Below, piece by piece: positions 14,070-63,900 of a stretch of DNA of 64,000 nt (position 1 is the stretch's first letter; every line of letters begins with the position of its first letter). The stretch spans positions 692,680 to 756,679 of the forward strand of contig OY729431.1 of assembly GCA_963422395.1 (NCBI GenBank). Direction: 5' to 3'. The notes below the pieces were generated by a model. It did not search any database. It was not told the origin of the DNA and saw only the letters and a program-made list of their open reading frames with translations. Position numbers and translations under genes: made by a program. The stretch comes from Vicinamibacteria bacterium (GTDB taxonomy: Bacteria > Acidobacteriota > Vicinamibacteria > Marinacidobacterales > Marinacidobacteraceae).

Positions 14070-16511
14070 TTGCCGACTCCCCGTTTCGTGTGGCGGGGCG
14101 TTGCCGCAGTTTGGTTTTCGGGCCTGTTGGCCGGTGCCGCGCCCGCTCCGTCAGGACCCGCTCCGCCGCCCGATGACCGCCGGGACCGACGAATCCAGGG
14201 ACGAATCCAGGACGGACAACAGGACGGACGAGACGAGCAGGGCGGCCACGACCGCCGGGGCGGCTCTTCGTTCGGCCTGCGCGGGGCGGGCAGGCTCGCG
14301 GACCGTCAGCAGGATCCCGGTGCGGCGATGGCCGGCCGTATCCTCGGTCCACCGGCGCCCGTGGCCGGCGAGTCGGTCCGCCGCGGCGCCGGCGGGCGGG
14401 TGACGCTCCGCGCCTTCCGCTTGGCTGAGCCCCTCACCGTGGACGGGGTGCTCGACGATCCGGTGTACGACCAGGCGCCGGCGGCGGACGGATTCGTGCA
14501 GCAGGAGCCCGACGAGGGCGCGCCGGCCTCGGAGTCCACCCGCGTCTGGGTGTTCTACGACGCGGACAGCCTCTACATCGCCGCCGAGCTGGAAGAATTG
14601 CATCCGGGGCGGCTAATGGCCAGAGAGATGCGCCGCGACCACCGGAGCATCGGCTGGAACGACAGCTTCCAGGTCATCCTCGACACCTTCTACGACCGCC
14701 GGAACGGTTTCCTGTTCCATACGAACGCGCTGGGGGCGCTCTACGACGCGCAGGTGACCGACGAACGGAACACCAACAGCGACTGGAACACGGTCTGGTG
14801 GGTCGAGACCGCAACCGGGGAACGGGGCTGGACGGCGGAGATCCGCATCCCCTTCCGCTCACTGCGCTACGCCGCCGGCGGACCCCAGCTCTGGGGGATC
14901 AACTTCCAGCGGAACATCAAGCACCGGAACGAAAAGGTGTTCTTCACCCCCACGCCGCAGGCCTACAACCGGGAGGCGCTGATCCGCCTGTCCAATGCCG
15001 CGACGCTCGTGGGTCTCGAAGCGCCCTCCGGGTCCCGGCGGATGGAGCTGAAGCCGTACCTGATCGGTTCGCAGCAGCACGCTCCCCTGAACGGCGTCGC
15101 GAACGAATGGTCCGGCGACCTCGGCGCCGACTTCAAGTTCGGGGTCACCGACGGGCTGACCGCCGATGTCACCTGGAACACCGACTTCGCGCAGGTGGAA
15201 GACGACGAGACCCAGATCAACCTGAGCCGTTTCAGCCTGTTCTTCCCGGAAAAGCGCGAGTTCTTCCTCGAAGGGCAGGGGGTCTTCGACTTCGGCGGCC
15301 GCCAGACCCGCGCCTTCGGCGGTCCGACGGACGTTCCCATCCCCTTCTTCAGCCGCTCGATCGGCATCTCGGACAGCTCTGTAGTGCCGATTCTCGGCGG
15401 CGCGCGGCTCCACGGCCGCGCCGGCGCCTACCAACTGGGGCTCCTGAACATCCAGGCCGGCGACGTCCCCGGACTCGATGCGGCGAGCACGAACTTCAGC
15501 GCCTTTCGGGTGAAACGCGACCTCTTCGCCCGGTCCAGCATCGGAGTGATCGCCACGCACCGCAACGTCGGCGCCGACGGATCGGGCTCCAACTCCCTCT
15601 ATGGCGCCGACGGGAACTTCAACCCGACCGAGAACATCCGGATCAACACCTTCTACATGGGGACCCGCGAGTCCGGCGTCGAAACCGGACACCGGGCCGC
15701 CAGCTATCTGGGCCAGTTCCGCTACGACACCGACCTGATCGACCTCACCGCCGAGCGTCTCTATCTGGGCGAGGACTTCGACCCGGGCATGGGCTTCGTG
15801 CGCCGCCGGGATTTCACGAAGAACGGAGGCAGCCTCCAGTTCTCCCCGCGTCCCCGGGGGATCGAACGGATCCGGCAGTTCGAGTTCAAGGCGGAGGCGA
15901 ACGACTACCGGCGCCCCGACGGCGGACTCGAAACGCGGGAGTACTCGTTCGAGGGACGCGCCATCTTCGAGAGCAGCGACCGTTTCGTGGTGGACCACAG
16001 CGTGACCGAAGAGCGGCTGCTGGACGGTTTCGACCTCTCGGACACGGTCGGAGTGCCCGCCGGGAACTACCGTTTCGCCCGCACCGGCGTCCGTTTCTGG
16101 ATGGGAACGCACCGCGCGGTCTCCGGATACTTCCGCTACGAGTTCGGGGACTTCTTCGGCGGCTCTCGCCGGGAGGTGAGCTACTGGGGGCGCGCCGAGG
16201 TGAACCGCCGCTTCTCCATGGAGCCGAATATCAGCCTCAACTGGATCGAGGTGCCGGAGGGAGAACTCCGGGCGCAGGTCAGCCGGCTGCGCGCGACCTG
16301 GACGGTCTCTCCGCGCAGCTTCGTGGGAGCACTCCTCCAATACAACTCGGCGGCGCAGCTCTTCTCTGCCAACGTCCGTTTCCGCTGGGAGTACTCGCCG
16401 GGCAGCGATGTGTTCATGGTCTTCAGCACGAACCGCGACGGCGGCGACGGGCTCTCCGGACTCACCGACCGGGCGCTGGTCGTCAAGTTCACCCGGCTGT
16501 TCCGGTTCTGA
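14070..16511 (+). CDS. DUF5916 / CBM9-like domain outer-membrane protein, paralog 2 of 3
   Basis: About 85% identical to paralog 1 over the conserved domains. Same motifs and the LFRF C-terminus. TTG start with signal-like VAAVWFSGLLAGAAPAP. This is followed by a low-complexity linker DRRDRRIQGRIQDGQQDGRDEQ encoded by short tandem repeats. Confidence 0.65.
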   Translation: MPTPRFVWRGVAAVWFSGLLAGAAPAPSGPAPPPDDRRDRRIQGRIQDGQQDGRDEQGGHDRRGGSSFGLRGAGRLADRQQDPGAAMAGRILGPPAPVAGESVRRGAGGRVTLRAFRLAEPLTVDGVLDDPVYDQAPAADGFVQQEPDEGAPASESTRVWVFYDADSLYIAAELEELHPGRLMAREMRRDHRSIGWNDSFQVILDTFYDRRNGFLFHTNALGALYDAQVTDERNTNSDWNTVWWVETATGERGWTAEIRIPFRSLRYAAGGPQLWGINFQRNIKHRNEKVFFTPTPQAYNREALIRLSNAATLVGLEAPSGSRRMELKPYLIGSQQHAPLNGVANEWSGDLGADFKFGVTDGLTADVTWNTDFAQVEDDETQINLSRFSLFFPEKREFFLEGQGVFDFGGRQTRAFGGPTDVPIPFFSRSIGISDSSVVPILGGARLHGRAGAYQLGLLNIQAGDVPGLDAASTNFSAFRVKRDLFARSSIGVIATHRNVGADGSGSNSLYGADGNFNPTENIRINTFYMGTRESGVETGHRAASYLGQFRYDTDLIDLTAERLYLGEDFDPGMGFVRRRDFTKNGGSLQFSPRPRGIERIRQFEFKAEANDYRRPDGGLETREYSFEGRAIFESSDRFVVDHSVTEERLLDGFDLSDTVGVPAGNYRFARTGVRFWMGTHRAVSGYFRYEFGDFFGGSRREVSYWGRAEVNRRFSMEPNISLNWIEVPEGELRAQVSRLRATWTVSPRSFVGALLQYNSAAQLFSANVRFRWEYSPGSDVFMVFSTNRDGGDGLSGLTDRALVVKFTRLFRF
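14160..14260 (+). repeat. Short tandem/low-complexity repeats (gacgaatccagg x2, acggac/acgagc units) in the N-terminal linker of DUF5916 paralog 2
   Basis: gaccgacgaatccagggacgaatccaggacggacaacaggacggacgagacgagcagg, read directly. Encodes DRRIQGRIQDGQQDGRDEQ. Confidence 0.6.
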
Positions 16512-16542
16512 CGCGCGGGCCGTCAGGCCACCACTCCCCTTC

Positions 16543-40571: not shown

Positions 40572-40600
40572 CCCAGGCGGGCGAACGCCGGCCGATCCCG

Positions 40601-41923
40601 ATGGAACTCCGAAGCCTCACCCTCGAGCGGTACAAGGGCTACGCCGAGCGTGTCACCCTCGACCTCGCGCCCCTGACCATCCTGGTGGGTCCGAACGACT
40701 CCGGCAAGAGCGCCCTGGCCCAGGCGATCCAGTTACTCGCCGGGGGGCTCGCGCCGGCGGATGACGAGGCGCGCGAGCCGCTTCCCCTCGCATCCGGCGG
40801 CATCCGGCACGGAAAGACCTTCGAGGATCTGGTGACCGGCCGCTCTGCGCACGGGTGGATCGGCGTGGGGAGTGTCTTTGCCCCCGCCGCCGGCCGCGAG
40901 ATCTCTCTCGACGCCACGGTGCAGAACGTGGTCGCTCCGGGCCAGCCTGCCGAGCGTCAGATCTCGAAGTGGCGGTTGAGCAGCGCGGAAGGCGAAGTGG
41001 CGGTGGAACGGCTCTCGCTGGCCGAAGGTGCCGAATACGGAGTGTCTCTGTCCAGGATGCCGCTGTCGGGCGAGACCTCCGATATCCAGCCGATCGTCTG
41101 GCGCGGGCTGCTCCCTGCTGAACCCAATGCGGTCGCGGCGTCGCTGGCCGAACCCGTGGAGTTGCTCTGGAAGTGGGCGCGCGGCGTCCGGCACCTGCGG
41201 TGCCCGCGCACTCTCGTTCCGTCACCATTTCGGACCGAACAGGCGCCCGCATACTTCGGCTTCCACGGAAGCGGCGGGGTCGGGTTCAACCAGGGGCCGT
41301 TCAACACAGTGCATCGGAGCGCACCCGCACTCGGCCCGTACGGACGGGATGCGCCGCTCGCCCTGGCTTCCGACGACCACCTCCTCGATTCCGTTCGCGG
41401 TTGGTACCGCAGCGCCTTCGGCGTGAGCCTCGACCTGCGCGTCCATGGGCCGCATCGGGACCTCGTGGTTCGACAGTCGAACGGCGCCGCCGACGTCCTT
41501 CTCGAACAGTCCGGGGCGGGTTTGTCCCAGGTGCTCCCCGTGGCGGTTGCCGTGCTGACCGCGCCGAACGCGGGTCCCGGCGTGGAGATCATCGAGCACC
41601 CGGAGGCGGAACTCCATCCAGCGGCGCACGCTCACGTCGCGGAGCTGCTGCTCGCGAACCTCCCCGGGCCGGCGCGGCCGGTGATCGTGGAGACGCACTC
41701 CGAGATGCTGCTGCTCCGGGCTAGACGCTGGATCGCGGAGAGGCGGCTCACCCCGGATCAGGTGCTCGTCTATTGGGTTTCGCGCGAACCGGACCGGGGT
41801 TCCACCCTGCAAAAGATCCGCATCACCGAGCACGGGGATATGGACAGCTGGCCCCAGGATGTCTTCATCGAGGACTACGAGGAGATCCTGGCGATCCGCC
41901 GCGCGGCGCGGGCGAAAGCGTAG
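40601..41923 (+). CDS. ariA: AAA15/AAA21-type ABC ATPase, PARIS AriA-like
   Basis: 441 aa. MELRSLTLERYKGYAERVTLDLAPLTILVGPNDSGKSALAQAIQLL is the N-terminal SMC-like Walker A of AAA15 ATPases. GVEIIEHPEAELHPAAHAHVAELL is Walker B/D-loop. C-terminal tail (VLVYWVSREPD...WPQDVFIEDYEEI) resembles the DUF3696-type end of these ATPases. Starts 30 bp after pepA. Confidence 0.6.
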   Translation: MELRSLTLERYKGYAERVTLDLAPLTILVGPNDSGKSALAQAIQLLAGGLAPADDEAREPLPLASGGIRHGKTFEDLVTGRSAHGWIGVGSVFAPAAGREISLDATVQNVVAPGQPAERQISKWRLSSAEGEVAVERLSLAEGAEYGVSLSRMPLSGETSDIQPIVWRGLLPAEPNAVAASLAEPVELLWKWARGVRHLRCPRTLVPSPFRTEQAPAYFGFHGSGGVGFNQGPFNTVHRSAPALGPYGRDAPLALASDDHLLDSVRGWYRSAFGVSLDLRVHGPHRDLVVRQSNGAADVLLEQSGAGLSQVLPVAVAVLTAPNAGPGVEIIEHPEAELHPAAHAHVAELLLANLPGPARPVIVETHSEMLLLRARRWIAERRLTPDQVLVYWVSREPDRGSTLQKIRITEHGDMDSWPQDVFIEDYEEILAIRRAARAKA

Positions 41924-41931
41924 AGCTGCGG

Positions 41932-42915
41932 ATGCGCATCACGATCACGGTGGAGGCCGCGAACGATGCTGCAGCGCACTCCTGGCTGGACCGGATCGTG
42001 CATCGGATCGAGGACGGCTGGCATGTCTGGGACCTGACCGACCTGGCCGAGCCGGCCTCCATGGAGGCCACCTCGTGGTTTCGGGATCCTGGCCGTCAGG
42101 GCCAGCGGCTGCGGGAGCTGCTGCGGGAGCTGCTGCGCACCTCCATACGGCGCGAGGCATGGTCTCCGTCTCTGGCGACGCACGGGAGGCGCTTGCGAGT
42201 GACGCCGCATCCGGCTGCAGAAGGGGAGTCGAAACCGGAGGACGCCTTCCGGCTCGCCGACAAGCCCCTGGTCCTCCTGGTGGAGAACCGGCAGAGCGAC
42301 GGCTCGTTCCTCAGGCGAGTCGTCGGGGAGCTGGACCGGACCCTCGGTAAGCTGTGGAAGAAGGACGGCGAACCGATCCGGGTGGACAGTGTGGGCGGCA
42401 GCGGCCAGATGCAGCAGGAGGTGCAGCGCCGAGCCGAGAAATCGGCCCGACCTTGCCGGCTCGTGGTGGTCGTGGACAGCGACCGCGAGGGTCCGGAGGC
42501 CCCCCCGAGTTCTGTTGCGCGAAAACTCGGCGGAGTGTGTGAGGAACACGGCGTTCCGTGCTGGATCCTCGCCAAGCGGGAGGCGGAGAACTACCTGCCT
42601 CGAGCTCTTCTCGAGGCACGGCCCGACACCGGTCCTGCGGATGCCGAGCGGGTGGAGGCGTGGGACCGCCTCGATGAGGACCAGAAGGACTTCTTCGACA
42701 TGAAGGACGGTTTGTCGAATCAGCCGTCAGCGACAGAGGAATCCGCGTTCCGCGGGATTTCGCCTGCCGACCGCCAGATCCTCAGCGAGGGGTTCGGGGA
42801 GCAGTTGCATACCTGCTGGTGCCTGGGTGGTACCGCCGAGGTTCGGAGAGAACTCATCGCCCGGAGCCGCGGCGATCTGGAACGCGGTTTGGAGATGATC
42901 CGAAGTCAGGTGTAG
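41932..42915 (+). CDS. ariB: Toprim-like protein, DUF4435/PARIS AriB-like (tentative)
   Basis: 328 aa from MRITITVEAANDAAAHSWLDR. Toprim-like acidic motifs KPLVLLVENRQSDGSFL and CRLVVVVDSDREG, plus ILAKREAENYLP. 8-bp gap after the ATPase gene. The 41773 track start overlaps the ATPase 3' end and is low-complexity. Family call is by motif pattern only. Confidence 0.4.
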   Translation: MRITITVEAANDAAAHSWLDRIVHRIEDGWHVWDLTDLAEPASMEATSWFRDPGRQGQRLRELLRELLRTSIRREAWSPSLATHGRRLRVTPHPAAEGESKPEDAFRLADKPLVLLVENRQSDGSFLRRVVGELDRTLGKLWKKDGEPIRVDSVGGSGQMQQEVQRRAEKSARPCRLVVVVDSDREGPEAPPSSVARKLGGVCEEHGVPCWILAKREAENYLPRALLEARPDTGPADAERVEAWDRLDEDQKDFFDMKDGLSNQPSATEESAFRGISPADRQILSEGFGEQLHTCWCLGGTAEVRRELIARSRGDLERGLEMIRSQV

Positions 42916-42919
42916 CGAA

Positions 42920-44581
42920 GTGGCGTCCCCCTTCTCCCGGCGAACCGAGGTCGTCTCCGAAGTCGTGTTCCTCGGGAAACTCGTCGAGCGGATCGTCTCC
43001 GGGAAGATTCGGGTCCCGAGGTTCCAGCGCGCCTTCGTCTGGAGACAGCAAGACATTCACAGACTTCTCGGCAGCGTCTTTCGCGGGTTCCCGATCGGGT
43101 CCATCCTGGTCTGGGACACGGACCTGAAGATCGCATCCAGCGACCGGATCGGGCCGGTCGATACGGCGCCTCGTCCCGACGGGACCGTGGGGTACCTGCT
43201 CGATGGCCAGCAGCGCGTCTCGACCCTGGTGGGGACGCTGCGCCTCGGTACCGGCCCAGCCATCGAGGATGAACTCGACTGGCGGGTTTACTGCGATCTC
43301 GAAACCGGCGAGTTCGTGCGAGCGCCGAAGGCCGGACCCGGGCCGCAGCATTTCCCGGTGCGGAGCCTGCTCGACACCGCCGGCTTCTTCGGCGCCTGCC
43401 GCCGAATTCAGGAGGAAGTGCAGGATACACGGAGGGCGAGGGAATGGCTCGGCGAGGCCGATCGCCTGGCGAACGCGTTCCGCGACTACCAGCTTCCCCT
43501 GATCCACATCAAGGAGGCGGATCTCGGTAGCGCGGTCACCGTGTTCGCCCGTCTGAACCGGACCGGGCGGAAGATGACGGCGGATGCGATGGTGTCGGCG
43601 CTGACCTACGACGAGGGCGGCTTCGACCTCGCCGCAAAGATCACGGAGTTCAAGGCCGAACTGAACCAACGGGGGTTCGGAAATCTCGACCGCGTGCTGC
43701 TCCTCCGGGCGGTGCTCGCCGCCCTGAAGCTCGACATCTACGCGCAGGACTGGGCGAATCTGATCCGGAAGCAGGAAGTTCACCCCAAGCTTCCGGGCGC
43801 TTTCGAATCGGCCGCCGACGGCTTGCGACGGGCGCTGGATTTCCTCCGGGAACTCGGGGTGACCTCGGACCGATTGCTGCCGTACGGCCTGCAGCTCGTC
43901 CTCCTCACCGAGTTCTTCCGGCGGTGCCCGGATCCGGCACCGGAGGCGAAGCGAACACTGAGTCGTTGGTTCTGGGTGACCTCCTTCAGCGTTTGGTTCG
44001 GCAGCGGCGGCAGTGCGAGAGTGAGACTCGCACTCCAGGAATTGCGGAATCTGGCGATGGACGCAGGGGCGGACCTCGAGGTCGTGGATCTCGATTCTCC
44101 GGCGGCGCCGTTTCCGGAACGGTTCGACGGACGCAGTTCGCGCGTCCGGGCCTTCCTGCTCTACCTCGGATCGCTCGAGCCGCGATCGCTGCGGGGCACT
44201 GGCGCCCTCGATCCGGGTGATTTGCTGGCTTCGCGAGGTACCGGAGCGTTGGGGTATGTGGTGGCGAATCCCGCGCGGGGCGACCAGTGGCTCTCGAGCC
44301 CGGCGAACCGGATGTTCGTGGACGCGGACCATATCGGGCAAGCCTTCGGATCGCTCGGGGCGCGAACGGACGAAGAGCTGGCCGTGCTGCTGCCCACACA
44401 TGGGTTTGGACCCGAAGCCATCGGGTCGATTCGAAGCAACGACCGGGAGGAATTGATCCGCGAGCGGCGCGAGACCCTCATCGAGGGTGAGCGCAAATTC
44501 ATGGAACAAAAGGAAGTTGCGCTGCCGATGGCGCGCACGGCGGCGACCGTGGCAGACAGCGAAGCGTCGGACGACGAGTAG
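42920..44581 (+). CDS. DUF262 (ParB-like/GmrSD N-domain) protein, second copy in window
   Basis: 553 aa. VPRFQRAFVWRQQDIHRLLGSVFRGFPIGSILVWDT...GYLLDGQQRVSTLVGTL is the DUF262 signature including DGQQR. 4-bp gap after the Toprim-like gene. Confidence 0.65.
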   Translation: MASPFSRRTEVVSEVVFLGKLVERIVSGKIRVPRFQRAFVWRQQDIHRLLGSVFRGFPIGSILVWDTDLKIASSDRIGPVDTAPRPDGTVGYLLDGQQRVSTLVGTLRLGTGPAIEDELDWRVYCDLETGEFVRAPKAGPGPQHFPVRSLLDTAGFFGACRRIQEEVQDTRRAREWLGEADRLANAFRDYQLPLIHIKEADLGSAVTVFARLNRTGRKMTADAMVSALTYDEGGFDLAAKITEFKAELNQRGFGNLDRVLLLRAVLAALKLDIYAQDWANLIRKQEVHPKLPGAFESAADGLRRALDFLRELGVTSDRLLPYGLQLVLLTEFFRRCPDPAPEAKRTLSRWFWVTSFSVWFGSGGSARVRLALQELRNLAMDAGADLEVVDLDSPAAPFPERFDGRSSRVRAFLLYLGSLEPRSLRGTGALDPGDLLASRGTGALGYVVANPARGDQWLSSPANRMFVDADHIGQAFGSLGARTDEELAVLLPTHGFGPEAIGSIRSNDREELIRERRETLIEGERKFMEQKEVALPMARTAATVADSEASDDE

Positions 44582-44752
44582 GTCGGGGGAATGACCGACA
44601 TTCGAGGGTAGTAGCGGGCGTTTGCGCAAAGCCCCGGCGCGGCCTCTCGCTCTCGCCGAGCGCTATCCACGGGAGGCTCGCCTTCGTTCCGGCGGCGCCC
44701 TCGGGTCGGGAGCGCTGGCAGGCGGGATCGAGTCTTCTCGACCCCTGCTGAT

Positions 44753-45970
44753 TCAGTCGTCCTCGCTGCTGTCGTCGGTGTCTCGCAGCCCGGGCGGGGG
44801 AGCGGGGCGCCGCCGCAGATCGGCGATCAGCAGACGGACGACGGCGCCGTAGCTCTGGGCGCCGTCGGGGATGCGCATGGTGCGGAGGTAGGAGTCGTTC
44901 ACCCGCCGTGCGGCGCCGCGCGCCAGGCCGCGATGCCGGGCCCAGAAGGTATCGAGCGCGTCGAGATCGCGCCGCGGGCCGGGTCCGAGGGCCGCCCAAA
45001 CTCGCTCCCGGTCGCGGGGGGCCGCATGTCGGGCGGCAGCGAGCAGGTGCCGTGCGGCGAAGAAGGATGCGGCGTAGCGGAGATACGGGTGGCGGCGTTG
45101 CTGCGAGAGAGCCAGATAGGCCGCGAAGCTGGCTTCGCCCTCGTGGGTCACGGCGCGCTGGTGCGCCTTCTCGTGAGCCGCGGTGAAGACGACCGCGACA
45201 TCGGGCGGACCGGTGTTCACCGTCGGCTCTCCGGTGAACGGGACGAAGATGCCGCTGATCCCCAACTTCGACATGAGTCCGGAAAACACCGCCGCCTTCA
45301 CGGGCGCCGCCCCGCTCGAACCCGGGTCGCCGGGGAGATCGAGCGCGTCGAAGGCGTCATCGATCGCGGCACTCAGATCGCCGAAATCCAGGGGGCTGCG
45401 AGAAGCGGTCTCCACCGGAAGACCGGCGAGTCCATGGGCCCGGGTGGTCTCGGCGGAGATTCGGGCGGCGAGCTGGAGGAGTTCGCGCTCTCCGATCTCC
45501 CCCGTCGGGAGGCCCAGGCGGTGTTCGAGCCGGGGCCTCGCGTAGTTGAGGCCCCATACCCCCAGGAAGACAGCGTAGAGCGCTCCGGCTCCGGCGAGAG
45601 CGAAGAGCCCGAGCTGGGCCGCTCGGCGCCAGCTGCCGCGGCTCCGGAGAACGGCCGTCCCGGCGGCCTCCTCCGCTCGCTGCGGGCTGGCGGCGCGGCG
45701 GCGCAGCGCCTCCCGGGGGATCCTCCAGAGAAGCCGGCCCAGTACCAAGAGGGCTGCAATCCCGGTGAACAGCTCGGCCAGTGAAAAGGGCAGGAAGCCG
45801 CTGATCCAGGAGAAGGCGCGCACCACCAGCGGATAGAAGCCGGTGGTGTAGATCGCTTCGACCCGCTCCGGCTCGAGGAGCGCGAGCCGGAAGATCGCGA
45901 CCGCCAGCACTCCTGCGGAAAGCCCGGCGGCGACGAACCCCCTTCTCCGGCTGCGTCCCGCCCACCGCAT
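44753..45970 (-). CDS. DUF3810-like membrane protein (putative zinc-dependent)
   Basis: 405 aa. N-terminal TM helices. Motif VVFTAAHEKAHQRAVTHEGEASFAAYL matches the AHExAHQ...EGEA signature of DUF3810 proteins. Confidence 0.5.
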   Translation of the reverse strand: MRWAGRSRRRGFVAAGLSAGVLAVAIFRLALLEPERVEAIYTTGFYPLVVRAFSWISGFLPFSLAELFTGIAALLVLGRLLWRIPREALRRRAASPQRAEEAAGTAVLRSRGSWRRAAQLGLFALAGAGALYAVFLGVWGLNYARPRLEHRLGLPTGEIGERELLQLAARISAETTRAHGLAGLPVETASRSPLDFGDLSAAIDDAFDALDLPGDPGSSGAAPVKAAVFSGLMSKLGISGIFVPFTGEPTVNTGPPDVAVVFTAAHEKAHQRAVTHEGEASFAAYLALSQQRRHPYLRYAASFFAARHLLAAARHAAPRDRERVWAALGPGPRRDLDALDTFWARHRGLARGAARRVNDSYLRTMRIPDGAQSYGAVVRLLIADLRRRPAPPPGLRDTDDSSEDD

Positions 45971-55114: not shown

Positions 55115-55255
55115 CCCGTCAGCGCCGCCCGCTCCGGGAGCGCAGCGCGCGGCGAATGGCTCTTGCGTCGGAAGGGTCTCTTGTCCTACCCTTGTCTGCT
55201 ACTCGCTGCGTCTTCGGAACCGGTTTTCCCTAGCCGCTCTCCAGCGTTCAGAACC

Positions 55256-57802
55256 ATGCGCTTTTTCTTGGGCTTCGCTGCTCTAGTGCTCGCTGCAGGC
55301 AACCACGCCCAGATCTCTCACGCCCGGGCCTTCGAGGCCCGGATCTCCGAAGCCCGGAACCCCGAGGCCCGCTTTTCGCCAGAGAGCCCCGGGCTGTCGG
55401 CGGTGCGTGGGTGGTCGTCGGGGTCGGGGTCGGGGGTGGGGGTTTCAGGAGTTGGGGCTGGGTCGTCGGCGGAGCACAACCGGATGGTTCGGACGTATTG
55501 CGTGGTGTGTCACAACGACCGGATGCGGACGGGGAACATGTCGTTGTCGGGTTTCGATGCGGGGGATGCGTCGTCGAGTCCGGAGTTGTCGGAGAAGGTG
55601 GTATCGAAGCTGCGTTTGGGGATGATGCCGCCGCCAGGGGCGCGTCGTCCGGCGGAGGAGGTATTGGAGGAGGTTGCGGGGTCTTTGGAGGGTCAGTTGG
55701 ATCGGAATGCGGAGGAGCATCCGAATCCGGGGAGGCGTTCGTTTCAGCGTTTGAATCGTGCGGAGTACACGGCGGCGGTTCGGGATTTGCTGGCGTTGCC
55801 GGTGGATGCTGCGGAGTATTTGCCTCAGGACACGATCAGCGCGAACTTCGACAACATCGCGGATGTTCAGTTGTTGTCGGCGACATTGATGGATTCGTAT
55901 TTGCGTGCGGCGGGCGAGATCAGTCGGCTGGCGGTGGGCGATCCGAACGCTGTGCCCGCCGAGACGAGCTACTTCGTTTCCCGCTGGTCTTCGCAGCGCC
56001 TACAGGTCGAGGGCGCTCCGTACGGAACCCGCGGCGGGATCGCGGTGGAGCACACTTTTCCGGCCGACGGACACTATGTGTTCCGGGTTTCGCTGCATCA
56101 TGAGGTCTGCGGCCCGATCGTCGGCACCGCTGCCGGAGCGCTGAACTCGGAGCAGGATCCCGAGCAACTCGAAGTCTCGATCGACGGCGAGCGCGTGGCG
56201 CTGCTCGCGATCGATCCCTGGATGCACACTTCGGACCCGAACGGGGCGACGATGCGGACCGAGCCCATCTTCATCGAAGCCGGGCCGCGCCGGGTGGCCG
56301 CTGCCTTCCTGCGCCAGTTCGATGGCCCCGTTCAGGACTTGATCTCTCCGCACGACTGGTCGCTGGCGAGCACGAACATCGCGCTCACCTACGGCATCCA
56401 CAGCCTGCCGCATCTGCGGGATGTACTGATTCGCGGTCCGTTCGAGGCGACGGGGGTATCGGAGACGCCGAGTCGGAGTCGGATATTCGGTTGTCGTCCA
56501 CTGTCGTCGGAGGAGGCGGTTGGGTGCGCGGAGGAGATCTTGGGACGTTTGGGGCGTTTGGCGTATCGCCGGAGTTTGACGGGGGAGGAGTTGGGAGCGT
56601 TGATGGAGCTGTATGCGTCGGGTTCGGAGAGTGTGGGTTTCGAGGAGGGGATTCGGATGGGGATCGAGGGGATGCTGGCGAGTCCGAACTTCGTATTTCG
56701 GATCGAGGAGCCGGTGGATCCCCGTGAGGCGGCGTTCGGGTATCGGCTGAGCGACACGGACCTGGCGTCTCGTTTGTCGTTTTATCTTTGGGGGACGATA
56801 CCGGACGAGGAGTTGCTGGATTCGGCGGAGTCGGGGCGTTTGTCGGATGCGGAGGAGTATGAGGGTCAGGTGCGTCGGATGCTGTCGGATCCGCGTTCGC
56901 TGGCGTTGTCGAAGCGTTTTGCGAGCCAGTGGTTTCGGTTACAGGATTTGGAGAAGATCAACCCGAACGTGCGTTTGTTTCCGGATTTCCATCAGCAGCT
57001 GAAGGAGGCGATGGTGGAGGAGACGGAGCGTTTTTTCCATCATTTGGTATTGGAGGACCGGAGCGTATTGGAGTTGTTCACGGCGGACTACACATTCGTG
57101 AATGAGCGATTGGCGAAGCACTACGGGATGACGGGGGTAGCGGGGCCGGAGCACCGTTTGGTGCGGTATGGGGATGCGGGCCGGCGTGGGATATTCGGTC
57201 ACGGGAGCATTTTGACATTGACTTCGCATCCGTATCGGACATCGGCGGTGCTGCGGGGCAAGTGGGTGATGGAGGTATTGCTGGGGAGCCCGCCGCCGCC
57301 GCCGCCGCCGAATGTTCCGGACCTGGACGCGACGGCGGCGACGGCGGATGGGCGTGAGCTGACGGCGCGGGAGCGTTTGGAGATCCATCGGGACAACCCG
57401 GCGTGCCGTTCGTGCCACCGGATGATGGACCCGATCGGGTTGGCGCTGGAGCACTACGATGTGACGGGTCGGGAGCGGGTGAAGGACTCGGGGCAGCCGA
57501 TCGATGCGTCGGGAGAGTTCTACGACGGGACGGCGATTCGGGATGTGGGTGATCTGCGGGCGGCGCTGCTGCTGCGGCCGACGCCGCTGCTGCGGACGTT
57601 CACGGAGAACCTGATGGCGTATGCGTTGGGGAGGCGGGTGGAGTATTACGATCAGCCGCGGGTGCGAGAGATCGTGCGCGAGGCGGCGGAGTCGGACTAT
57701 CGGATGTCGGCGTTCTTGTTGGGCGTGGCGCGGAGTCCGGCGTTCCAGAGGAAGGGAGTTTCGGAGCCGTCGCCGGTGGCGACGGAGCTGGGCGAGCCCT
57801 GA
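55256..57802 (+). CDS. DUF1592/DUF1587/DUF1595-family di-heme cytochrome-like protein (Planctomycete-type PSCyt/PSD domains), copy 1
   Basis: Signal peptide MRFFLGFAALVLAAGNHAQ. Alternative TTG start at 55163. Two CxxCH haem motifs: YCVVCHND and ACRSCHRMMDPIG. Also a PPPPPPP tract. Followed by a DUF1552 gene, as is typical for this family. Confidence 0.65.
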   Translation: MRFFLGFAALVLAAGNHAQISHARAFEARISEARNPEARFSPESPGLSAVRGWSSGSGSGVGVSGVGAGSSAEHNRMVRTYCVVCHNDRMRTGNMSLSGFDAGDASSSPELSEKVVSKLRLGMMPPPGARRPAEEVLEEVAGSLEGQLDRNAEEHPNPGRRSFQRLNRAEYTAAVRDLLALPVDAAEYLPQDTISANFDNIADVQLLSATLMDSYLRAAGEISRLAVGDPNAVPAETSYFVSRWSSQRLQVEGAPYGTRGGIAVEHTFPADGHYVFRVSLHHEVCGPIVGTAAGALNSEQDPEQLEVSIDGERVALLAIDPWMHTSDPNGATMRTEPIFIEAGPRRVAAAFLRQFDGPVQDLISPHDWSLASTNIALTYGIHSLPHLRDVLIRGPFEATGVSETPSRSRIFGCRPLSSEEAVGCAEEILGRLGRLAYRRSLTGEELGALMELYASGSESVGFEEGIRMGIEGMLASPNFVFRIEEPVDPREAAFGYRLSDTDLASRLSFYLWGTIPDEELLDSAESGRLSDAEEYEGQVRRMLSDPRSLALSKRFASQWFRLQDLEKINPNVRLFPDFHQQLKEAMVEETERFFHHLVLEDRSVLELFTADYTFVNERLAKHYGMTGVAGPEHRLVRYGDAGRRGIFGHGSILTLTSHPYRTSAVLRGKWVMEVLLGSPPPPPPPNVPDLDATAATADGRELTARERLEIHRDNPACRSCHRMMDPIGLALEHYDVTGRERVKDSGQPIDASGEFYDGTAIRDVGDLRAALLLRPTPLLRTFTENLMAYALGRRVEYYDQPRVREIVREAAESDYRMSAFLLGVARSPAFQRKGVSEPSPVATELGEP

Positions 57803-57902
57803 GCTAGGAGAGAGCGATGCACTATCTGACAGGGAAGAGAGTTCCGCGGCGGAGTTTTCTGCGGGGAGCGGGTGCGGCGGTGGCGCTGCCGTTTCTGGAT
57901 GC
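55394..57902 (+). repeat. Copy A of a 6098-bp-spaced direct duplication (partner 61492-64000)
   Basis: Direct comparison: 55394-55920 versus 61492-62018 differ at only a few positions. 55920-56440 versus 62018-62538 are only about 80% identical. 56440-57902 versus 62538-64000 are identical at every position checked. The offset is constant at 6098. Confidence 0.85.
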
Positions 57903-59199
57903 GATGGTTCCGGCGAGCGTGATTGCGAAGCCGGGGGCGTCGGAGCGAACGCGGCTGGTGGCGATCGAGATCGTGCACGGCGCGGCGGGGAGCAACGAGT
58001 ATGGGCGGGAGCAGAACCTGTGGTCGCCGGCTGCGGAGGGTGCGGAGTTCGATCTGTCCGAGGGTGCGTTGAGCCCGCTTGCGCCGTATCGGGACCATGT
58101 GACGATCGTGAGCGATTGTGATGTGGAGCCGGCAGAGGCGGAGACGGCGCGTGAGATCGGAGGGGACCACTTCCGTTCGAGCGCGGCGTTCCTGACGCAG
58201 TCGCATCCGAAGCAGACGGAGGGTTCGGATGTGCACGCGGGGACTTCGCTGGACCAGCTGTATGCGGCGCGCTTCGGCCAGGAGACGCCGATTCCTTCGA
58301 TGCAGCTGTGCATCGAGACGGTGGACCAAGCGGGAGGGTGCGCGTACGGGTATGCGTGCGTGTACACGGACACGATCAGCTGGGCGTCGCCGACGCAGCC
58401 GCTGCCGATGACGCGGGACCCGCGGATCGTGTTCGATCAGCTGTTCGGCGCGGGGGGGACGCCGGAGGGCCGAGTGGCGCGTCAGCAGGCGCGCAAGAGC
58501 GTGCTGGACTTCATCGGAGAGGAAGTCCGGCGGCTCCAGGGGGCGCTGGACCCGGAGGATGTGCGGCGGATGGACCGGTATCTGACGGACATCCGTGAGA
58601 TGGAGCGTCGGATCGAGCGGATCGTGGAGCGGAACACGAGCGGAGAGCTGCGTGACCTGCCGGAGGCGCCGTCGGGAGTCCCGGACTCGTTCGACGAGCA
58701 TGTGAAGATCATGTTCGACCTGCAGGCGCTGGCGTTCCAGTCGGACATGACGCGGGTGTTCAGCTTCAAGCTGGGACGGGATGCGTCGAGCCGGGTGTAT
58801 CCGGAGAGCGGAGAAGCGACGGCGTTCCACCCGGCATCGCACCACGGGAACGACCCGGAGCGGGTGGAGGTTCTGGGACGGATCAATCGGTACCATGTGG
58901 GCTTGGTCCCGTATTTCATGGAGCGGCTCGCGGGGATCGAGGAGGGAGACCGCTCGCTGCTGGACAAGACGATGATCCTGTATGGGTCCCCGATGGGAGA
59001 CCCGAACATCCACAACCACAAGCGGGTTCCGTTCTTCGTCGCAGGCGGTGCGAACGGGGCGCTGGAGCATGGCCTGCATTTGCGGGCGGCGGCGGGTACG
59101 CCGCTGGCGAACGTGATGCTGACGCTGTTGCACGAGCTGGGTCTGGACGACCTCCCGCGCTTCGGAAACAGCACCGGAGAGTTCTCCCTTTCGGCGTGA
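57817..59199 (+). CDS. DUF1552-domain protein with twin-arginine (Tat) signal, copy 1
   Basis: AGGAGAG RBS. MHYLTGKRVPRRSFLRGAGAAVALPFL is the Tat motif RRSFLRG. 460 aa. Standard partner of DUF1592 proteins. Confidence 0.65.
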   Translation: MHYLTGKRVPRRSFLRGAGAAVALPFLDAMVPASVIAKPGASERTRLVAIEIVHGAAGSNEYGREQNLWSPAAEGAEFDLSEGALSPLAPYRDHVTIVSDCDVEPAEAETAREIGGDHFRSSAAFLTQSHPKQTEGSDVHAGTSLDQLYAARFGQETPIPSMQLCIETVDQAGGCAYGYACVYTDTISWASPTQPLPMTRDPRIVFDQLFGAGGTPEGRVARQQARKSVLDFIGEEVRRLQGALDPEDVRRMDRYLTDIREMERRIERIVERNTSGELRDLPEAPSGVPDSFDEHVKIMFDLQALAFQSDMTRVFSFKLGRDASSRVYPESGEATAFHPASHHGNDPERVEVLGRINRYHVGLVPYFMERLAGIEEGDRSLLDKTMILYGSPMGDPNIHNHKRVPFFVAGGANGALEHGLHLRAAAGTPLANVMLTLLHELGLDDLPRFGNSTGEFSLSA

Positions 59200-59231
59200 G
59201 CCGGGGGCGCGCCGGGGAGGAGATCTGGAAA

Positions 59232-61298
59232 ATGGAGATGGAGAGGAACGGAGAGAAGCGGAAGGCGGGGCTGTTGCTGTGCCTCGCGGCGGGGCTCGCG
59301 GCGGCGTGCCTATCGCTGGCGGGGGCCTCGTTCGCGGCGCGGGTGCCGCCGGTTCTGGAGGCGGCGAAGCGTGGAGATGTCGAGGCGCTGCGGTCGGAGC
59401 TGCGGTCGGGGGGAGATGTGAACACGGCGCAGGGGGACGGTTTCACCGCGCTGCACTGGGCGGCGAAGACGGGGAGCCGCGAGGTGGCGGAGGTGTTGAT
59501 CGCGGCGGGAGCGGACCTGCGGGCGACGACGCGGCTGGGAAGCCACATGCCGTTGCATGTGGCGGCGGCAGCGGGGCAGCCGGGGGTTGCGGAAGCGCTG
59601 CTCGAGGCCGGCGCTCCGGTCGCTGCAACCACCGGAACCGGCGCTCGGCCCATCCACTTCGCCGCCGCCTCCGGGAACCCCTCCCTGATCGAAGTGCTCG
59701 CGGGGAAGGGCGCTGACCTGAATGTGGTCGAACCGCAGTGGGGGCAGACCCCGCTCATGTTCGCCGCCGCCACCGGCCGCGCCGCGGCGGTCGAGGCGCT
59801 GCTGGTTCGAGGGGCGGATCCCTCCGCGACGGCCTCGGTCCTCGATGTGGCGGCGCGGGCAGAAGCCGACCTGCTGGCCCGCCGGGCCCGTCAGGCGCGG
59901 GTAGATCGCGAGCGGGGCGGGGCCGGCGTGATCTACGACCCTCGGGAACGGGACAAGCAGCGCAAGGAAGCGCAGCGGCGGGCGAAGGCGGCCGCTGCCG
60001 CCAAGGCGGAGCGCGAGAAAGGGCGCACCGAAGAAACGCCCGCAGCCTCCGGTTCCGGAAAGAGCGGCTCTGCGGATCTCGCCGACCTGAAGCTGGAGGG
60101 AAAGAAGCCAGCGGAGGACGGGGAGGGCGCAGCCGATGCGGAAGCGTCCGAAGCCGAAAAGGACGAACACGCGGAGGCTCACGGCCACCCCGAAGACGAA
60201 CTCGTCCGGGAAGAAGAGAAGACCCGGAAAGAAGACGAGCAGAAGGCCGCCGCCCGGAAGGGTGGTGACTCCGGGAAGGAAAACCGGCAGCCGCTGCGGT
60301 ATGCCGAACTCGTGGGCACCCACGGCGGTCTGACGGCGCTGCTGCTCGCTGCCCGCGACGGCCATCTCGAAGCGGCGGCGGCTCTGCTGGACGGAGGCGC
60401 CGCTGTCGATCAGCGAGCTGAAGGACACCGGACGACCCCGCTTCTGATGGCCGCCATCAACGGCCACTACGACCTCGGCATGGAGCTGCTCGCCCGCGGT
60501 GCCGACCCGAACCTCAGGAACATCTCCGGTGCCGCTCCGCTCTATGCAGCCATCAACGCCCGCTGGATTTCCCAACCCTTCCACCCGCAGCCGGCAGACC
60601 ACCTGCAGCAGCAGAACTCGCATGTCGAGTTCATGGAAGCGCTGATCGAGGCCGGCGCCGATATCGATGCTCGGCTCGAGCGGAAGCAGTGGTACAGCAC
60701 CTACAACACCGACCAGCTCGGAGTGAACCGGGCCGGGGCGACCGCCTTCTGGCGCGCTGCGTACGCGCTGGACATTCCGGCGATGGAACTGCTCGTTGCG
60801 CACGGTGCGGACCCTTCGATTCCCACCATGAAGGTCCCCGAACGGACGCTGCGCCGGCTGACGGACCTGGTCTCCGAAGATCCGGAGGAGGATCCTTCGG
60901 GGCTGCCCGAGGTGCCCTACGGAGGGCCTGGCGTCTATCCGATCCACGCTGCCGCCGGGGTGGGCTACGGGCTGGGTCTCGCGGCGAACTCGCATCGCCA
61001 CGCTCCCGACGCCTGGCTGCCGGCGGTGCAGTACCTGGTGGAGGAACACGGCGCCGATCCGGACGCCCGAGACCACAATGGATACAGCGTCATCCACCAC
61101 GCCGCTTCGCGCGGGGACAACGAGATGATCGAGTATCTGATCGGGAAGGGCGCCGATCCGTTGGCGGTCGCCCGGACCGGCCAGACGACGATCGATCTCG
61201 CGAACGGTCCGGTGCAGCGGATCAGCCCCTTCCCGGAAACCATCGCGCTACTCGAAGGTTACGGCGCCAAGAACAACAACCGCTGCGTCGGGTGCTGA
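59232..61298 (+). CDS. Secreted ankyrin-repeat protein with charged low-complexity central linker
   Basis: GGAGGAG RBS 9 nt upstream. Signal peptide MEMERNGEKRKAGLLLCLAAGLAAACLSLAGASFA. ANK repeats (GFTALHWAAKTGSREVAEVLIAAGADL, MPLHVAAAAGQPGVAEALLEAGA, TPLLMAAINGHYDLGMELLARGADPN, YSVIHHAASRGDNEMIEYLIGKGADP). A ~130-aa K/E/A-rich linker sits in the middle. Confidence 0.65.
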   Translation: MEMERNGEKRKAGLLLCLAAGLAAACLSLAGASFAARVPPVLEAAKRGDVEALRSELRSGGDVNTAQGDGFTALHWAAKTGSREVAEVLIAAGADLRATTRLGSHMPLHVAAAAGQPGVAEALLEAGAPVAATTGTGARPIHFAAASGNPSLIEVLAGKGADLNVVEPQWGQTPLMFAAATGRAAAVEALLVRGADPSATASVLDVAARAEADLLARRARQARVDRERGGAGVIYDPRERDKQRKEAQRRAKAAAAAKAEREKGRTEETPAASGSGKSGSADLADLKLEGKKPAEDGEGAADAEASEAEKDEHAEAHGHPEDELVREEEKTRKEDEQKAAARKGGDSGKENRQPLRYAELVGTHGGLTALLLAARDGHLEAAAALLDGGAAVDQRAEGHRTTPLLMAAINGHYDLGMELLARGADPNLRNISGAAPLYAAINARWISQPFHPQPADHLQQQNSHVEFMEALIEAGADIDARLERKQWYSTYNTDQLGVNRAGATAFWRAAYALDIPAMELLVAHGADPSIPTMKVPERTLRRLTDLVSEDPEEDPSGLPEVPYGGPGVYPIHAAAGVGYGLGLAANSHRHAPDAWLPAVQYLVEEHGADPDARDHNGYSVIHHAASRGDNEMIEYLIGKGADPLAVARTGQTTIDLANGPVQRISPFPETIALLEGYGAKNNNRCVGC

Positions 61299-61305
61299 CA
61301 AGAGG

Positions 61306-63900
61306 ATGCGGCGTTTGACTTTCGATGGCGAGGCGAGGGTCGGCCGCGTTCCCTTTGCGATTTCCGTTTTCCTGATTTCCCTGCTGCCGATTGCCGCCGG
61401 GGCCTCTTCGGCTGCGGCAGCACCGTCTCTCCCACCGTCCTCGCCGCAGGCGTCAGCGGTCGAAGGATCGCCGCCGCTTTCCGCTTCTGCGCTGTCGGCG
61501 GTGCGTGGGTGGTCGTCGGGGTCGGGGTCGGGGGTGGGGGTTTCAGGAGTTGGGGCTGGGTCGTCGGCGGAGCACAACCGGATGGTTCGGATGTATTGCG
61601 TGGTGTGTCACAACGACCGGATGCGGACGGGGAACATGTCGTTGTCGGGTTTCGATGCGGGGGATGCGTCGTCGAGTCCGGAGTTGTCGGAGAAGGTGGT
61701 GTCGAAGCTGCGTTTGGGGATGATGCCGCCGCCAGGGGCGCGTCGTCCGGCGGAGGAGGTATTGGAGGAGGTTGCGGGGTCTTTGGAGGGTCAGTTGGAT
61801 CGGAATGCGGAGGAGCATCCGAATCCGGGGAGGCGTTCGTTTCAGCGTTTGAATCGTGCGGAGTACACGGCGGCGGTTCGGGATTTGCTGGCGTTGCCGG
61901 TGGATGCTGCGGAGTATTTGCCTCAGGACACGATCAGCGCGAACTTCGACAACATCGCGGATGTTCAGTTGTTGTCGGCGACATTGATGGATTCGTATTT
62001 GCGTGCGGCGGGCGAGATCAGTCGGCTGGCCGTGGGCGATCCGAACGCTGCGCCCGCCGAGACCGGCTACCATGTGTCGCGTTGGGCGTCCCAGCTGGAC
62101 CAGGTCGAGGGCGCTCCGTACGGAACCCGCGGCGGGATCGCGGTGGAGCATGTCTTTCCCGCTGACGGTGCATACCGATTCCGAGTGGCGTTCCACCATG
62201 AGACGACCGGCGCGATCGTGGGTTCGGGATCGAGTTCGCTCCATACCCTGGACGCTCCGGAACGAGTGGAGATCTCGATCGACGGCGAGCGGGTGGCGCT
62301 GCTCACGGTCGACCGCTGGATGCATGTCTCCGATCCCGACGGGGTCAACTTGCGGACCGAGCCCATCTTCGTCCGCGGGGGGCCGCGCCGGGTTGCTGCT
62401 GCCTTCCTGAAACATTACGAGGGTCCGGTCCTCGACTTGATCTCTCCGCACGACTGGTCGCTGGCGAGCACCGCGACCTCGAGGACCTACGGCATCCACA
62501 ATGTCCCCCACCTGCGGGATTTCTTCATCACCGGTCCGTTCGAGGCGACGGGGGTATCGGAGACGCCGAGTCGGAGTCGGATATTCGGTTGTCGTCCACT
62601 GTCGTCGGAGGAGGCGGTTGGGTGCGCGGAGGAGATCTTGGGACGTTTGGGGCGTTTGGCGTATCGCCGGAGTTTGACGGGGGAGGAGTTGGGAGCGTTG
62701 ATGGAGCTGTATGCGTCGGGTTCGGAGAGTGTGGGTTTCGAGGAGGGGATTCGGATGGGGATCGAGGGGATGCTGGCGAGTCCGAACTTCGTATTTCGGA
62801 TCGAGGAGCCGGTGGATCCCCGTGAGGCGGCGTTCGGGTATCGGCTGAGCGACACGGACCTGGCGTCTCGTTTGTCGTTTTATCTTTGGGGGACGATACC
62901 GGACGAGGAGTTGCTGGATTCGGCGGAGTCGGGGCGTTTGTCGGATGCGGAGGAGTATGAGGGTCAGGTGCGTCGGATGCTGTCGGATCCGCGTTCGCTG
63001 GCGTTGTCGAAGCGTTTTGCGAGCCAGTGGTTTCGGTTACAGGATTTGGAGAAGATCAACCCGAACGTGCGTTTGTTTCCGGATTTCCATCAGCAGCTGA
63101 AGGAGGCGATGGTGGAGGAGACGGAGCGTTTTTTCCATCATTTGGTATTGGAGGACCGGAGCGTATTGGAGTTGTTCACGGCGGACTACACATTCGTGAA
63201 TGAGCGATTGGCGAAGCACTACGGGATGACGGGGGTAGCGGGGCCGGAGCACCGTTTGGTGCGGTATGGGGATGCGGGCCGGCGTGGGATATTCGGTCAC
63301 GGGAGCATTTTGACATTGACTTCGCATCCGTATCGGACATCGGCGGTGCTGCGGGGCAAGTGGGTGATGGAGGTATTGCTGGGGAGCCCGCCGCCGCCGC
63401 CGCCGCCGAATGTTCCGGACCTGGACGCGACGGCGGCGACGGCGGATGGGCGTGAGCTGACGGCGCGGGAGCGTTTGGAGATCCATCGGGACAACCCGGC
63501 GTGCCGTTCGTGCCACCGGATGATGGACCCGATCGGGTTGGCGCTGGAGCACTACGATGTGACGGGTCGGGAGCGGGTGAAGGACTCGGGGCAGCCGATC
63601 GATGCGTCGGGAGAGTTCTACGACGGGACGGCGATTCGGGATGTGGGTGATCTGCGGGCGGCGCTGCTGCTGCGGCCGACGCCGCTGCTGCGGACGTTCA
63701 CGGAGAACCTGATGGCGTATGCGTTGGGGAGGCGGGTGGAGTATTACGATCAGCCGCGGGTGCGAGAGATCGTGCGCGAGGCGGCGGAGTCGGACTATCG
63801 GATGTCGGCGTTCTTGTTGGGCGTGGCGCGGAGTCCGGCGTTCCAGAGGAAGGGAGTTTCGGAGCCGTCGCCGGTGGCGACGGAGCTGGGCGAGCCCTGA
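61306..63900 (+). CDS. DUF1592/DUF1587/DUF1595-family di-heme cytochrome-like protein, copy 2
   Basis: Different N-terminus from copy 1 (MRRLTFDGEARVGRVPFAISVFLISLLPIAAGASSAAAA). From 61492 onward it is near-identical to copy 1, apart from a ~520-bp diverged patch. Same CVVCH and CRSCH motifs. Confidence 0.65.
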   Translation: MRRLTFDGEARVGRVPFAISVFLISLLPIAAGASSAAAAPSLPPSSPQASAVEGSPPLSASALSAVRGWSSGSGSGVGVSGVGAGSSAEHNRMVRMYCVVCHNDRMRTGNMSLSGFDAGDASSSPELSEKVVSKLRLGMMPPPGARRPAEEVLEEVAGSLEGQLDRNAEEHPNPGRRSFQRLNRAEYTAAVRDLLALPVDAAEYLPQDTISANFDNIADVQLLSATLMDSYLRAAGEISRLAVGDPNAAPAETGYHVSRWASQLDQVEGAPYGTRGGIAVEHVFPADGAYRFRVAFHHETTGAIVGSGSSSLHTLDAPERVEISIDGERVALLTVDRWMHVSDPDGVNLRTEPIFVRGGPRRVAAAFLKHYEGPVLDLISPHDWSLASTATSRTYGIHNVPHLRDFFITGPFEATGVSETPSRSRIFGCRPLSSEEAVGCAEEILGRLGRLAYRRSLTGEELGALMELYASGSESVGFEEGIRMGIEGMLASPNFVFRIEEPVDPREAAFGYRLSDTDLASRLSFYLWGTIPDEELLDSAESGRLSDAEEYEGQVRRMLSDPRSLALSKRFASQWFRLQDLEKINPNVRLFPDFHQQLKEAMVEETERFFHHLVLEDRSVLELFTADYTFVNERLAKHYGMTGVAGPEHRLVRYGDAGRRGIFGHGSILTLTSHPYRTSAVLRGKWVMEVLLGSPPPPPPPNVPDLDATAATADGRELTARERLEIHRDNPACRSCHRMMDPIGLALEHYDVTGRERVKDSGQPIDASGEFYDGTAIRDVGDLRAALLLRPTPLLRTFTENLMAYALGRRVEYYDQPRVREIVREAAESDYRMSAFLLGVARSPAFQRKGVSEPSPVATELGEP

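Follow-up and report, generated by a model that had tools for sequence, protein, structure and literature searches.

A 64,000-nucleotide (nt) stretch of contig OY729431.1 (positions 692,680 to 756,679) from a Vicinamibacteria bacterium, referred to here as the window, contains a cassette of three same-strand genes, designated A, B, and C, between pepA and a convergent DUF3810 gene. The genes encode an ABC-type ATPase of the DUF3696 clade, a predicted Toprim nuclease-like protein, and a GmrSD/BrxU-like DUF262 protein, and all three products match the models of PDC-M55, a phage defense candidate (PDC) in PADLOC-DB v2. The gene context of the window was annotated with Pfam and by choosing open reading frames (ORFs) according to the GC content at third codon positions (GC3). 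The GC3 of genes A, B, and C (0.80 to 0.83) is slightly lower than that of the neighboring genes (0.84 to 0.88). The spacers within the cassette measure 8 nt (A/B) and 4 nt (B/C). The coordinates confirm the order of the genes and these two gaps as given in an earlier note on this DNA, while the gap behind pepA is corrected from 30 to 29 nt and the length of the B protein from 328 to 327 amino acids (aa). The locus is composed as follows.

40572-40600, no strand: upstream junction, a 29-nt spacer from the pepA stop (40571) to the start of gene A; left insertion edge
40601-41923, plus strand: gene A (ATG start, 440 aa), ABC-type ATPase of the DUF3696 clade, PDC-M55A match
41932-42915, plus strand: gene B (ATG start, 327 aa), PDC-M55B, family without a Pfam model
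42920-44581, plus strand: gene C (GTG start, 553 aa), PDC-M55C, GmrSD/BrxU-like DUF262 protein
44582-44752, no strand: downstream junction, a 171-nt spacer ahead of the convergent DUF3810 gene; right insertion edge
44753-45970, minus strand: DUF3810 gene, convergent neighbor downstream of gene C

Assignment of the cassette to PDC-M55

Comparison with the PADLOC models placed A, B, and C in PDC-M55A (E-value, 9.5e-67), PDC-M55B (8.5e-36), and PDC-M55C (3.4e-122), respectively, and the genes follow the catalog order A>>B>>C. In the supplementary table of Payne et al. 2024, this system is listed as CAS_00179, FAM_00005>>FAM_02935>>FAM_00004, with the remark "Assign as candidate PDC-M55" (bioRxiv 10.1101/2024.01.29.577857). 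That study derived its PDCs from genes lying inside BREX, DISARM, and type I restriction-modification (RM) systems, an approach termed "guilt-by-embedding" (10.1101/2024.01.29.577857). The E-values, together with the same gene order in about 60 other genomes, are far above chance, and the locus is almost certainly a member of PDC-M55. It shares the three models and their order with the cataloged system but differs in its setting, as the window copy lies outside any BREX, DISARM, or RM locus and stands alone between pepA and the DUF3810 gene. The PADLOC matches and the conservation of the trio support the three-gene candidate defense module proposed in the earlier note; the idea that it could be a new variant is withdrawn, since the exact trio in the same order is already in PADLOC-DB v2. 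The presence of the cassette in the window is not a discovery in itself because PADLOC already lists it. An exact look-up of the window B protein found no record.

Insertion between pepA and the DUF3810 gene

Nine related metagenomic contigs share a syntenic block of acs, pepA, the DUF3810 gene (opposite strand), a small ORF, an FAD oxidoreductase gene, and an amidohydrolase gene. In all nine of them the DUF3810 gene comes directly after pepA, with no cassette. Because pepA lies directly beside the DUF3810 gene in these relatives, the cassette is a 4.2-kb insertion, as had been proposed earlier from its position behind acs-pepA. DNA similarity to the closest relative (L076, 78 to 86% protein identity) stops at position 40564 and restarts at position 44759. 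Foreign DNA may settle repeatedly in the intergenic site between pepA and the DUF3810 gene. A search for traces of how the cassette inserted found no tRNA gene in the window, no integrase gene, and no convincing flanking direct or inverted repeats. The upstream spacer has no promoter-like site, and the plus strand of the downstream spacer has no terminator-like site. In L076 itself, an unrelated 1.1-kb segment (3660-4782) with no convincing ORF is found between pepA and the DUF3810 gene.

Gene A encodes a DUF3696-clade ABC ATPase

The A protein matches AAA_15 (1.4e-14) and AAA_21 (5.1e-14) in Pfam, with weaker SMC_N-type matches at its N terminus. These matches and the located motifs agree with the earlier description of an AAA15-type ABC ATPase with a Walker A and a Walker B/D-loop. 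Three elements of the protein are of particular relevance.

40688-40711, plus strand: Walker A, G30-P-N-D-S-G-K36-S37; the G-x-N-x-x-G-K core is kept in most of 62 homologs
41582-41620, plus strand: noncanonical Walker B and D-loop, V328-E-I-I-E332-H333-P-E-A-E-L-H-P340; IEHPEAELHP is at least 90% conserved among the 62 homologs
41747-41866, plus strand: DUF3696 C-terminal tail, residues 383 to 422 (Pfam 8.7e-6, 26.3 bits against a cutoff of 22); predicted effector-docking element

In the Walker B motif, E332-H333 replaces the D-E that is usual in ABC ATPases, and the Q-x-G-x-G signature and the H-loop (E-T-H366-S-E) are both conserved among the 62 homologs. A comparable set of deviations is known from Menshen, a system reportedly credited to Millman 2022. 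Menshen consists of NsnA-NsnB-NsnC and was analyzed by Li et al. 2025 (PMC12065111), who describe in NsnB an E-N instead of the D-E of Walker B and a GxG substituting for SGG. The DUF3696 tails of the NsnB dimer were modeled as gripping the effector NsnC by its N-terminal domain, in contrast to PARIS, where AriB docks on the ATPase dimer surface of AriA (PMC12065111). By analogy with these AlphaFold3 models of NsnB-NsnC, the DUF3696 tail of A is predicted to be a docking element for an effector.

Among the PADLOC models, behind PDC-M55A (224 bits), the A protein matches NsnB (3e-33, 114 bits), HEC-03B (7e-29, 99 bits), and then AriA (3.5e-16, 58 bits), and the best-scoring stretch of the AriA model on A is the N-terminal P-loop (residues 1 to 47). 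By these profile scores, A is related to the ATPases of Menshen (NsnB) and HEC-03 and stands farther from AriA, and no AriA chain is among the PDB sequence matches for A. The two genes of HEC-03, for an ABC ATPase and a PIN-domain protein, are both needed for its experimentally demonstrated defense, and the representative protein carries the annotation DUF3696 domain-containing (Payne et al. 2024, 10.1101/2024.01.29.577857). The HEC-03B model also matches a Bacillus relative of A (4.8e-52), and the ATPase is paired with a partner of nuclease fold in both systems; however, the HEC-03 partner is a VapC-like PIN protein rather than a Toprim protein, and HEC-03 has no DUF262 gene.

Gene B represents a large Toprim family without a Pfam model

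No Pfam match to the B protein was obtained at an E-value of 1 or lower, DUF4435 included, and searches of NCBIfam and of PDB sequences gave nothing useful. Among the PADLOC models, the sole match besides PDC-M55B is HEC-01B (0.012), which is a TOPRIM protein according to Payne et al. (bioRxiv 10.1101/2024.01.29.577857). More than 500 close homologs of B were found, none of them carrying a Pfam domain, and a profile search with B retrieved 1572 representatives at 50% identity. Gene B thus defines a large Toprim family without a Pfam model. The predicted protein begins with a domain of about 100 aa, which precedes an OLD-type Toprim nuclease-like domain with helical C-terminal elements; the conserved residues are concentrated as follows.

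42262-42606, plus strand: Toprim core of B, approximately residues 111 to 225, with E118, D123, G155-G156, R176, D182-S-D184, K215-R216, and E219-N220-Y221

These core residues are invariant or nearly so in 61 relatives that are mostly 23 to 43% identical to B, and the conserved set is, at the level of sequence motifs, that of the Toprim glutamate and DxD followed by an E-N-Y element. Isolated weak Pfam matches among the 61 relatives were dismissed as noise. The AlphaFold2 model of B is good (pLDDT, 83; pTM, 0.81) and places the conserved residues on a four-stranded alpha/beta core (residues 113 to 213), with a predicted strand order compatible with a four-stranded Toprim sheet. A Foldseek search with this model ranked OLD first and a 306-residue chain of the PARIS complex entry 8ux9, which we take to be AriB, second; both matches are weak (E of about 0.03). 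The predicted fold of B resembles those of the OLD, AriB, and GajA nucleases.

The models of DUF4435, DUF4276, and RloB matched neither B nor the relatives scanned. The Toprim-like motifs previously noticed in B therefore stand, with E118, D182-x-D184, and E219-N-Y conserved and supported by the fold, whereas the proposed DUF4435/AriB membership does not, in view of the missing hidden Markov model (HMM) match: the likeness is one of fold and not of family. B shares the Toprim catalytic glutamate and DxD with OLD and GajA. In those proteins, however, ATPase and Toprim domains form one polypeptide, while here they are encoded by separate genes with an 8-nt gap, and the ATPase carries a DUF3696 tail.

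Gene C encodes a BrxU-like DUF262 protein

GmrSD_N (DUF262) is the only Pfam domain matched by the C protein (1.1e-20, residues 19 to 227), in line with the 553-aa DUF262 protein with a DGQQR motif that had been read from the sequence before. Two parts of the protein can be distinguished.

42974-43600, plus strand: DUF262 (ParB-like NTPase) domain, with F-Q36-R37-x-x-x-W41, D95-G-Q-Q-R99, and F209-x-x-x-N213
44057-44524, plus strand: C-terminal region, approximately residues 380 to 535, with a predicted fold like the C-terminal half of BrxU and SspE and without the DHIYP dyad

The DUF262 motifs are intact and invariant in the homologs (F-Q36-R37-A-F-V-W41, D95-GQQR99, and F209-ARL-N213), and the family consensus additionally holds an RLFDS-like LLDS. 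C thereby shares the QRxxxW, DGQQR, and FxxxN motifs of BrxU and GmrSD. In the PADLOC comparison, PDC-M55C is followed by HEC-05 (BrxU-like; 1.6e-20) and NsnA (4.6e-8), the latter over residues 4 to 64 only. The AlphaFold2 model of C is poor for residues 1 to 122 and good from about residue 230 to 535; only the C-terminal two thirds were used, and their predicted fold resembles BrxU. The C-terminal region contains the invariant elements FDxRSARVR (402 to 410), PANR (461 to 464, including N463 and R464), and H494.

The nuclease motif of BrxU is DHIYP, with D474-H475 (PMC8565348). The position inferred to be equivalent in C is occupied by G445-Y446, and a D-H pair is present in none of 71 homologs. 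A DUF1524 model match was likewise absent from C, from 120 listed homologs, and from 5 distant members. C is probably unable to cut DNA canonically because it has no DUF1524 HMM match and its 71 homologs have no D-H dyad. BrxU and GmrSD act as single proteins (PMC8565348), whereas C is always encoded with an ATPase and a Toprim protein.

Conservation, distribution, and mobility of the trio

A scan of one genome per species with the closer of our alignments (A1) found 66 loci. The taxa include Acidobacteriota, Binatia, Gamma- and Alphaproteobacteria, Spirochaetia, Latescibacterota, Rhodothermales, Chloroflexota, Cyanobacteria, Myxococcota, Bacteroidota, and others. Among 67 loci compared by tblastn, the A-B-C order was recovered in about 60 from at least ten phyla, the exceptions being located at contig ends (L048 and L052), decayed (L041 and L067), or split by insertions (L054, L063, and L064). 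Across 51 intact loci, the median gap is 6 nt from A to B and 4 nt from B to C, and the identities to the three window proteins covary (r, 0.55 to 0.79). Four B relatives among the most distant in the alignment (23 to 31% identical) are still encoded between an AAA_15/AAA_21-type ATPase, which comes first, and a GmrSD_N protein of 546 to 580 aa, which comes last; DUF3696 is recorded in one of these ATPases, and one of the contigs has only the 3′ end of the upstream gene. The gene-neighborhood survey that the earlier note had called for thus finds the trio kept as a unit in nearly all loci, down to 23 to 31% B identity.

The genes surrounding the trio vary by genome and are mostly housekeeping genes, with transposase, integrase, or toxin-antitoxin genes sometimes close by. 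The trio is also found on a conjugative IncFII plasmid of Leclercia and on a mobilizable plasmid of Paracoccus. A search of a phage collection with B gave no match. The distribution of the cassette is patchy and horizontally transferred.

Some plasmid copies depart from the core family. On a Bacillus paranthracis plasmid (NZ_CP101136.1, 4190-7894), a DUF3696 ATPase (PDC-M55A, 8e-80; NsnB, 3e-57) and a B-like Toprim protein adjoin AbiGi/AbiGii, with no DUF262 ORF in the next 1.2 kb. A and B can exist without C, because this plasmid has both and no DUF262 ORF, and C is not always required. In addition, on the Bacillus and Leclercia plasmids the match of the PDC-M55B model is limited to the Toprim part of B and leaves out the first 85 to 130 residues, and that of the PDC-M55C model does not extend past the first 353 residues of the Leclercia C protein. 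Subfamilies thus differ at the ends of B and C, a variation that recalls the domain polymorphism of Menshen.

The three split loci are from Vicinamibacterales metagenome-assembled genomes. The extra DNA lies between A and a truncated B in two of them (about 3.3 kb in L063 and 2.4 kb in L064) and between B and C in the third (about 1.3 kb in L054), and it probably represents mobile-element insertions that disrupt the cassette.

Comparison with known systems

Menshen offers the closest competing account, in which the cassette would be a true Menshen in the circularly permuted order NsnB-NsnC-NsnA, with a Toprim-type NsnC and the same sensor-transducer-effector mechanism. Both combine a DUF262 protein with a DUF3696 ABC ATPase, whose Walker B is noncanonical (non-D-E) and whose signature is GxG, and with a nuclease effector of two domains. 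The match of A to the NsnB model extends over the full length in the Bacillus relative. The C protein of the Leclercia plasmid aligns to positions 47 to 333 of the 385 in the NsnA model. NsnC proteins have an N-terminal inactive-PIN domain and a C-terminal nuclease (PMC12065111), some of the latter being Toprim-fold nucleases (DUF4276 and RloB), and B is also of two domains with the Toprim domain at the C-terminal side; a PIN-like fold of the N-terminal domain of B, however, is not established, and no NsnC, DUF4276, or RloB model matches B. The gene order is B-C-A in Nsn letters in every locus seen, and never A-B-C, whereas the published Menshen survey demanded NsnA followed by NsnB. NsnA consists of DUF262 and ParBDB without a nuclease domain (PMC12065111), while the 553-aa C protein is BrxU-like in length and fold, with an extra DUF1524-like domain, and matches the NsnA model over residues 4 to 64 only. 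The hhalign alignment of C with the NsnA-type protein encoded elsewhere in the window is confined to the DUF262 domain. B and C are moreover conserved over their full length in the core family, unlike the polymorphic Menshen. Filing the locus as Menshen was rejected on the permuted order, the BrxU-like architecture of C, and the missing NsnC match of B, and we consider this account unlikely.

Alternatively, two independent systems could travel together, with C as a solitary BrxU/GmrSD-like type IV enzyme beside a HEC-01/PARIS-type ATPase-Toprim pair formed by A and B. Single-protein action of BrxU and GmrSD and the Bacillus cereus-group plasmid (the one inspected of eight records), with A and B but no DUF262 ORF within 1.2 kb, are compatible with such an arrangement. 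Independent systems are nevertheless difficult to reconcile with gaps of 4 to 6 nt or overlaps kept in 51 intact loci, the correlated divergence of the three proteins, and the persistence of the trio among the most distant B relatives. A solitary C would also probably lack canonical DNA cutting, given the missing DUF1524 match and D-H dyad. We regard an arrangement of this kind as quite improbable.

The earlier note had assigned the ATPase and the middle gene to the architecture of PARIS, so that A would be an AriA homolog sequestering an AriB-like Toprim nuclease until a trigger such as Ocr appears, and the DUF262 gene would be an accessory. This assignment failed at the AriA comparison (58 bits, against 224 for PDC-M55A), A not being AriA-like outside its ATPase core. 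A carries the DUF3696 tail that binds the effector in the Menshen models, in contrast to the docking of AriB on the dimer surface of AriA. Neither B nor its scanned relatives match the DUF4435 or AriB HMM. PARIS is a two-gene system, while here nearly all loci have a DUF262 gene behind B. The locus is therefore not a PARIS member, and a PARIS variant is very improbable.

Lastly, a role outside defense, for example in mobile-element maintenance, addiction, or DNA repair, has in its favor the absence of experimental support for defense, the housekeeping flanks at this locus, and the toxin-antitoxin genes and transposases near some copies, but it is hardly credible given that the component families occur in defense (OLD/Gabija/PARIS Toprim, GmrSD/BrxU/SspE DUF262, and NsnB/HEC-03 ATPases), that the system was cataloged because copies sit inside BREX, DISARM, or type I RM loci, and that its distribution is patchy and horizontally transferred. 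The locus is likely to be a defense system.

Other features of the window

A second DUF262 gene (1441-2619, minus strand) encodes a full-length protein of the NsnA/PD-T4-2A type (7.3e-61 and 6.5e-50, respectively). It adjoins an Hma helicase gene and a gene read as a KAP NTPase, consistent with the earlier observation of a second and differently partnered DUF262 gene. It belongs to a separate defense region of lower GC content (54 to 66%) at positions 1 to 10000. Behind it, also on the minus strand, come an ORF of about 170 aa and a P-loop gene (GEWGSGKT), interpreted as encoding a KAP-family NTPase, that runs off the start of the window. Positions 6269-9982 (minus strand) encode an SNF2 helicase of the HmaA type that has helix-turn-helix and NOV_C domains (PADLOC HmaA, 1.1e-163), and three ORFs at 2812-5654 (plus strand) have no Pfam or PADLOC match.

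Farther along the window are a PIN-domain (VapC-like) gene at 10481-10927 (Pfam, 1.3e-17) and three tandem paralogs of about 830 to 940 aa at 11236-19032, each with DUF5916 and two of them also with a subthreshold CBM9. The region from 55115 to 63900 has a lower GC content and a strong positive GC skew. It contains paralogous multidomain PSD/PSCyt genes at 55115-57802 and 61141-63900 (Pfam DUF1585, 1587, 1588, 1592, and 1595), a DUF1552 gene at 57808-59199, and a large ankyrin-repeat gene.

Proposed mechanism and significance

On balance, we favor the reading that the locus is a stand-alone, horizontally acquired PDC-M55 cassette between pepA and the DUF3810 gene, whose three products would act together. 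The mechanism drawn here follows analogies with Menshen (Li et al. 2025), PARIS, Gabija, and BrxU, and suggests a possible division of labor in which C senses, A holds and regulates B, and B cleaves nucleic acid. As a type IV-restriction-like protein with no canonical nuclease center, C would be the sensor, whose DUF262 and helical domains may recognize DNA that is modified or foreign in some other way, with nucleoside triphosphate binding or hydrolysis at DGQQR. An oligomer of A would hold B through the DUF3696 tails and the N-terminal domain of B, as modeled for NsnB-NsnC and analogous to AriA-AriB. A signal from C would then lead to an ATP-dependent rearrangement or release that activates B, whose Toprim nuclease may cut DNA, as do OLD and GajA, or tRNA, as does AriB, so that the phage or the infected cell is stopped.

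Several points weigh against this reading. The contacts of A with B and with C are drawn by analogy alone, and the N-terminal domain of B, which would be held by A, is not established as PIN-like. For C, the model is poor over the first 122 residues, and an inactive or noncanonical HNH center is inferred from the position of the motif without a superposition; the invariant N463, R464, and H494 could form a noncanonical active site. Eight Bacillus cereus-group plasmid records match B, and the one inspected has A and B without C. The flanks of the cassette here are housekeeping genes, so that it does not lie in a defense island in this window, and our literature searches found no published experiment on PDC-M55.

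More tentatively, PDC-M55 may be a distinct system, in which a BrxU/GmrSD-type type IV restriction protein that has lost its HNH dyad now serves as a sensor of foreign or modified DNA and gives the go-ahead to a split, OLD-like machine, whose parts are a DUF3696 ATPase and a Toprim nuclease of a previously unclassified family. If this is true, PDC-M55 would be a sister of Menshen, set apart by another sensor architecture and by an effector that is fixed and nonpolymorphic. The cassette is easy to test because it is compact (4 kb), self-contained, and present across many phyla. If it defends, it would add a working example of an ABC ATPase plus a nuclease beside OLD, Gabija, PARIS, Septu, Menshen, and HEC-01 to HEC-04, and it would show how a type IV-restriction-like DUF262 protein can act as the sensor for a separate nuclease.

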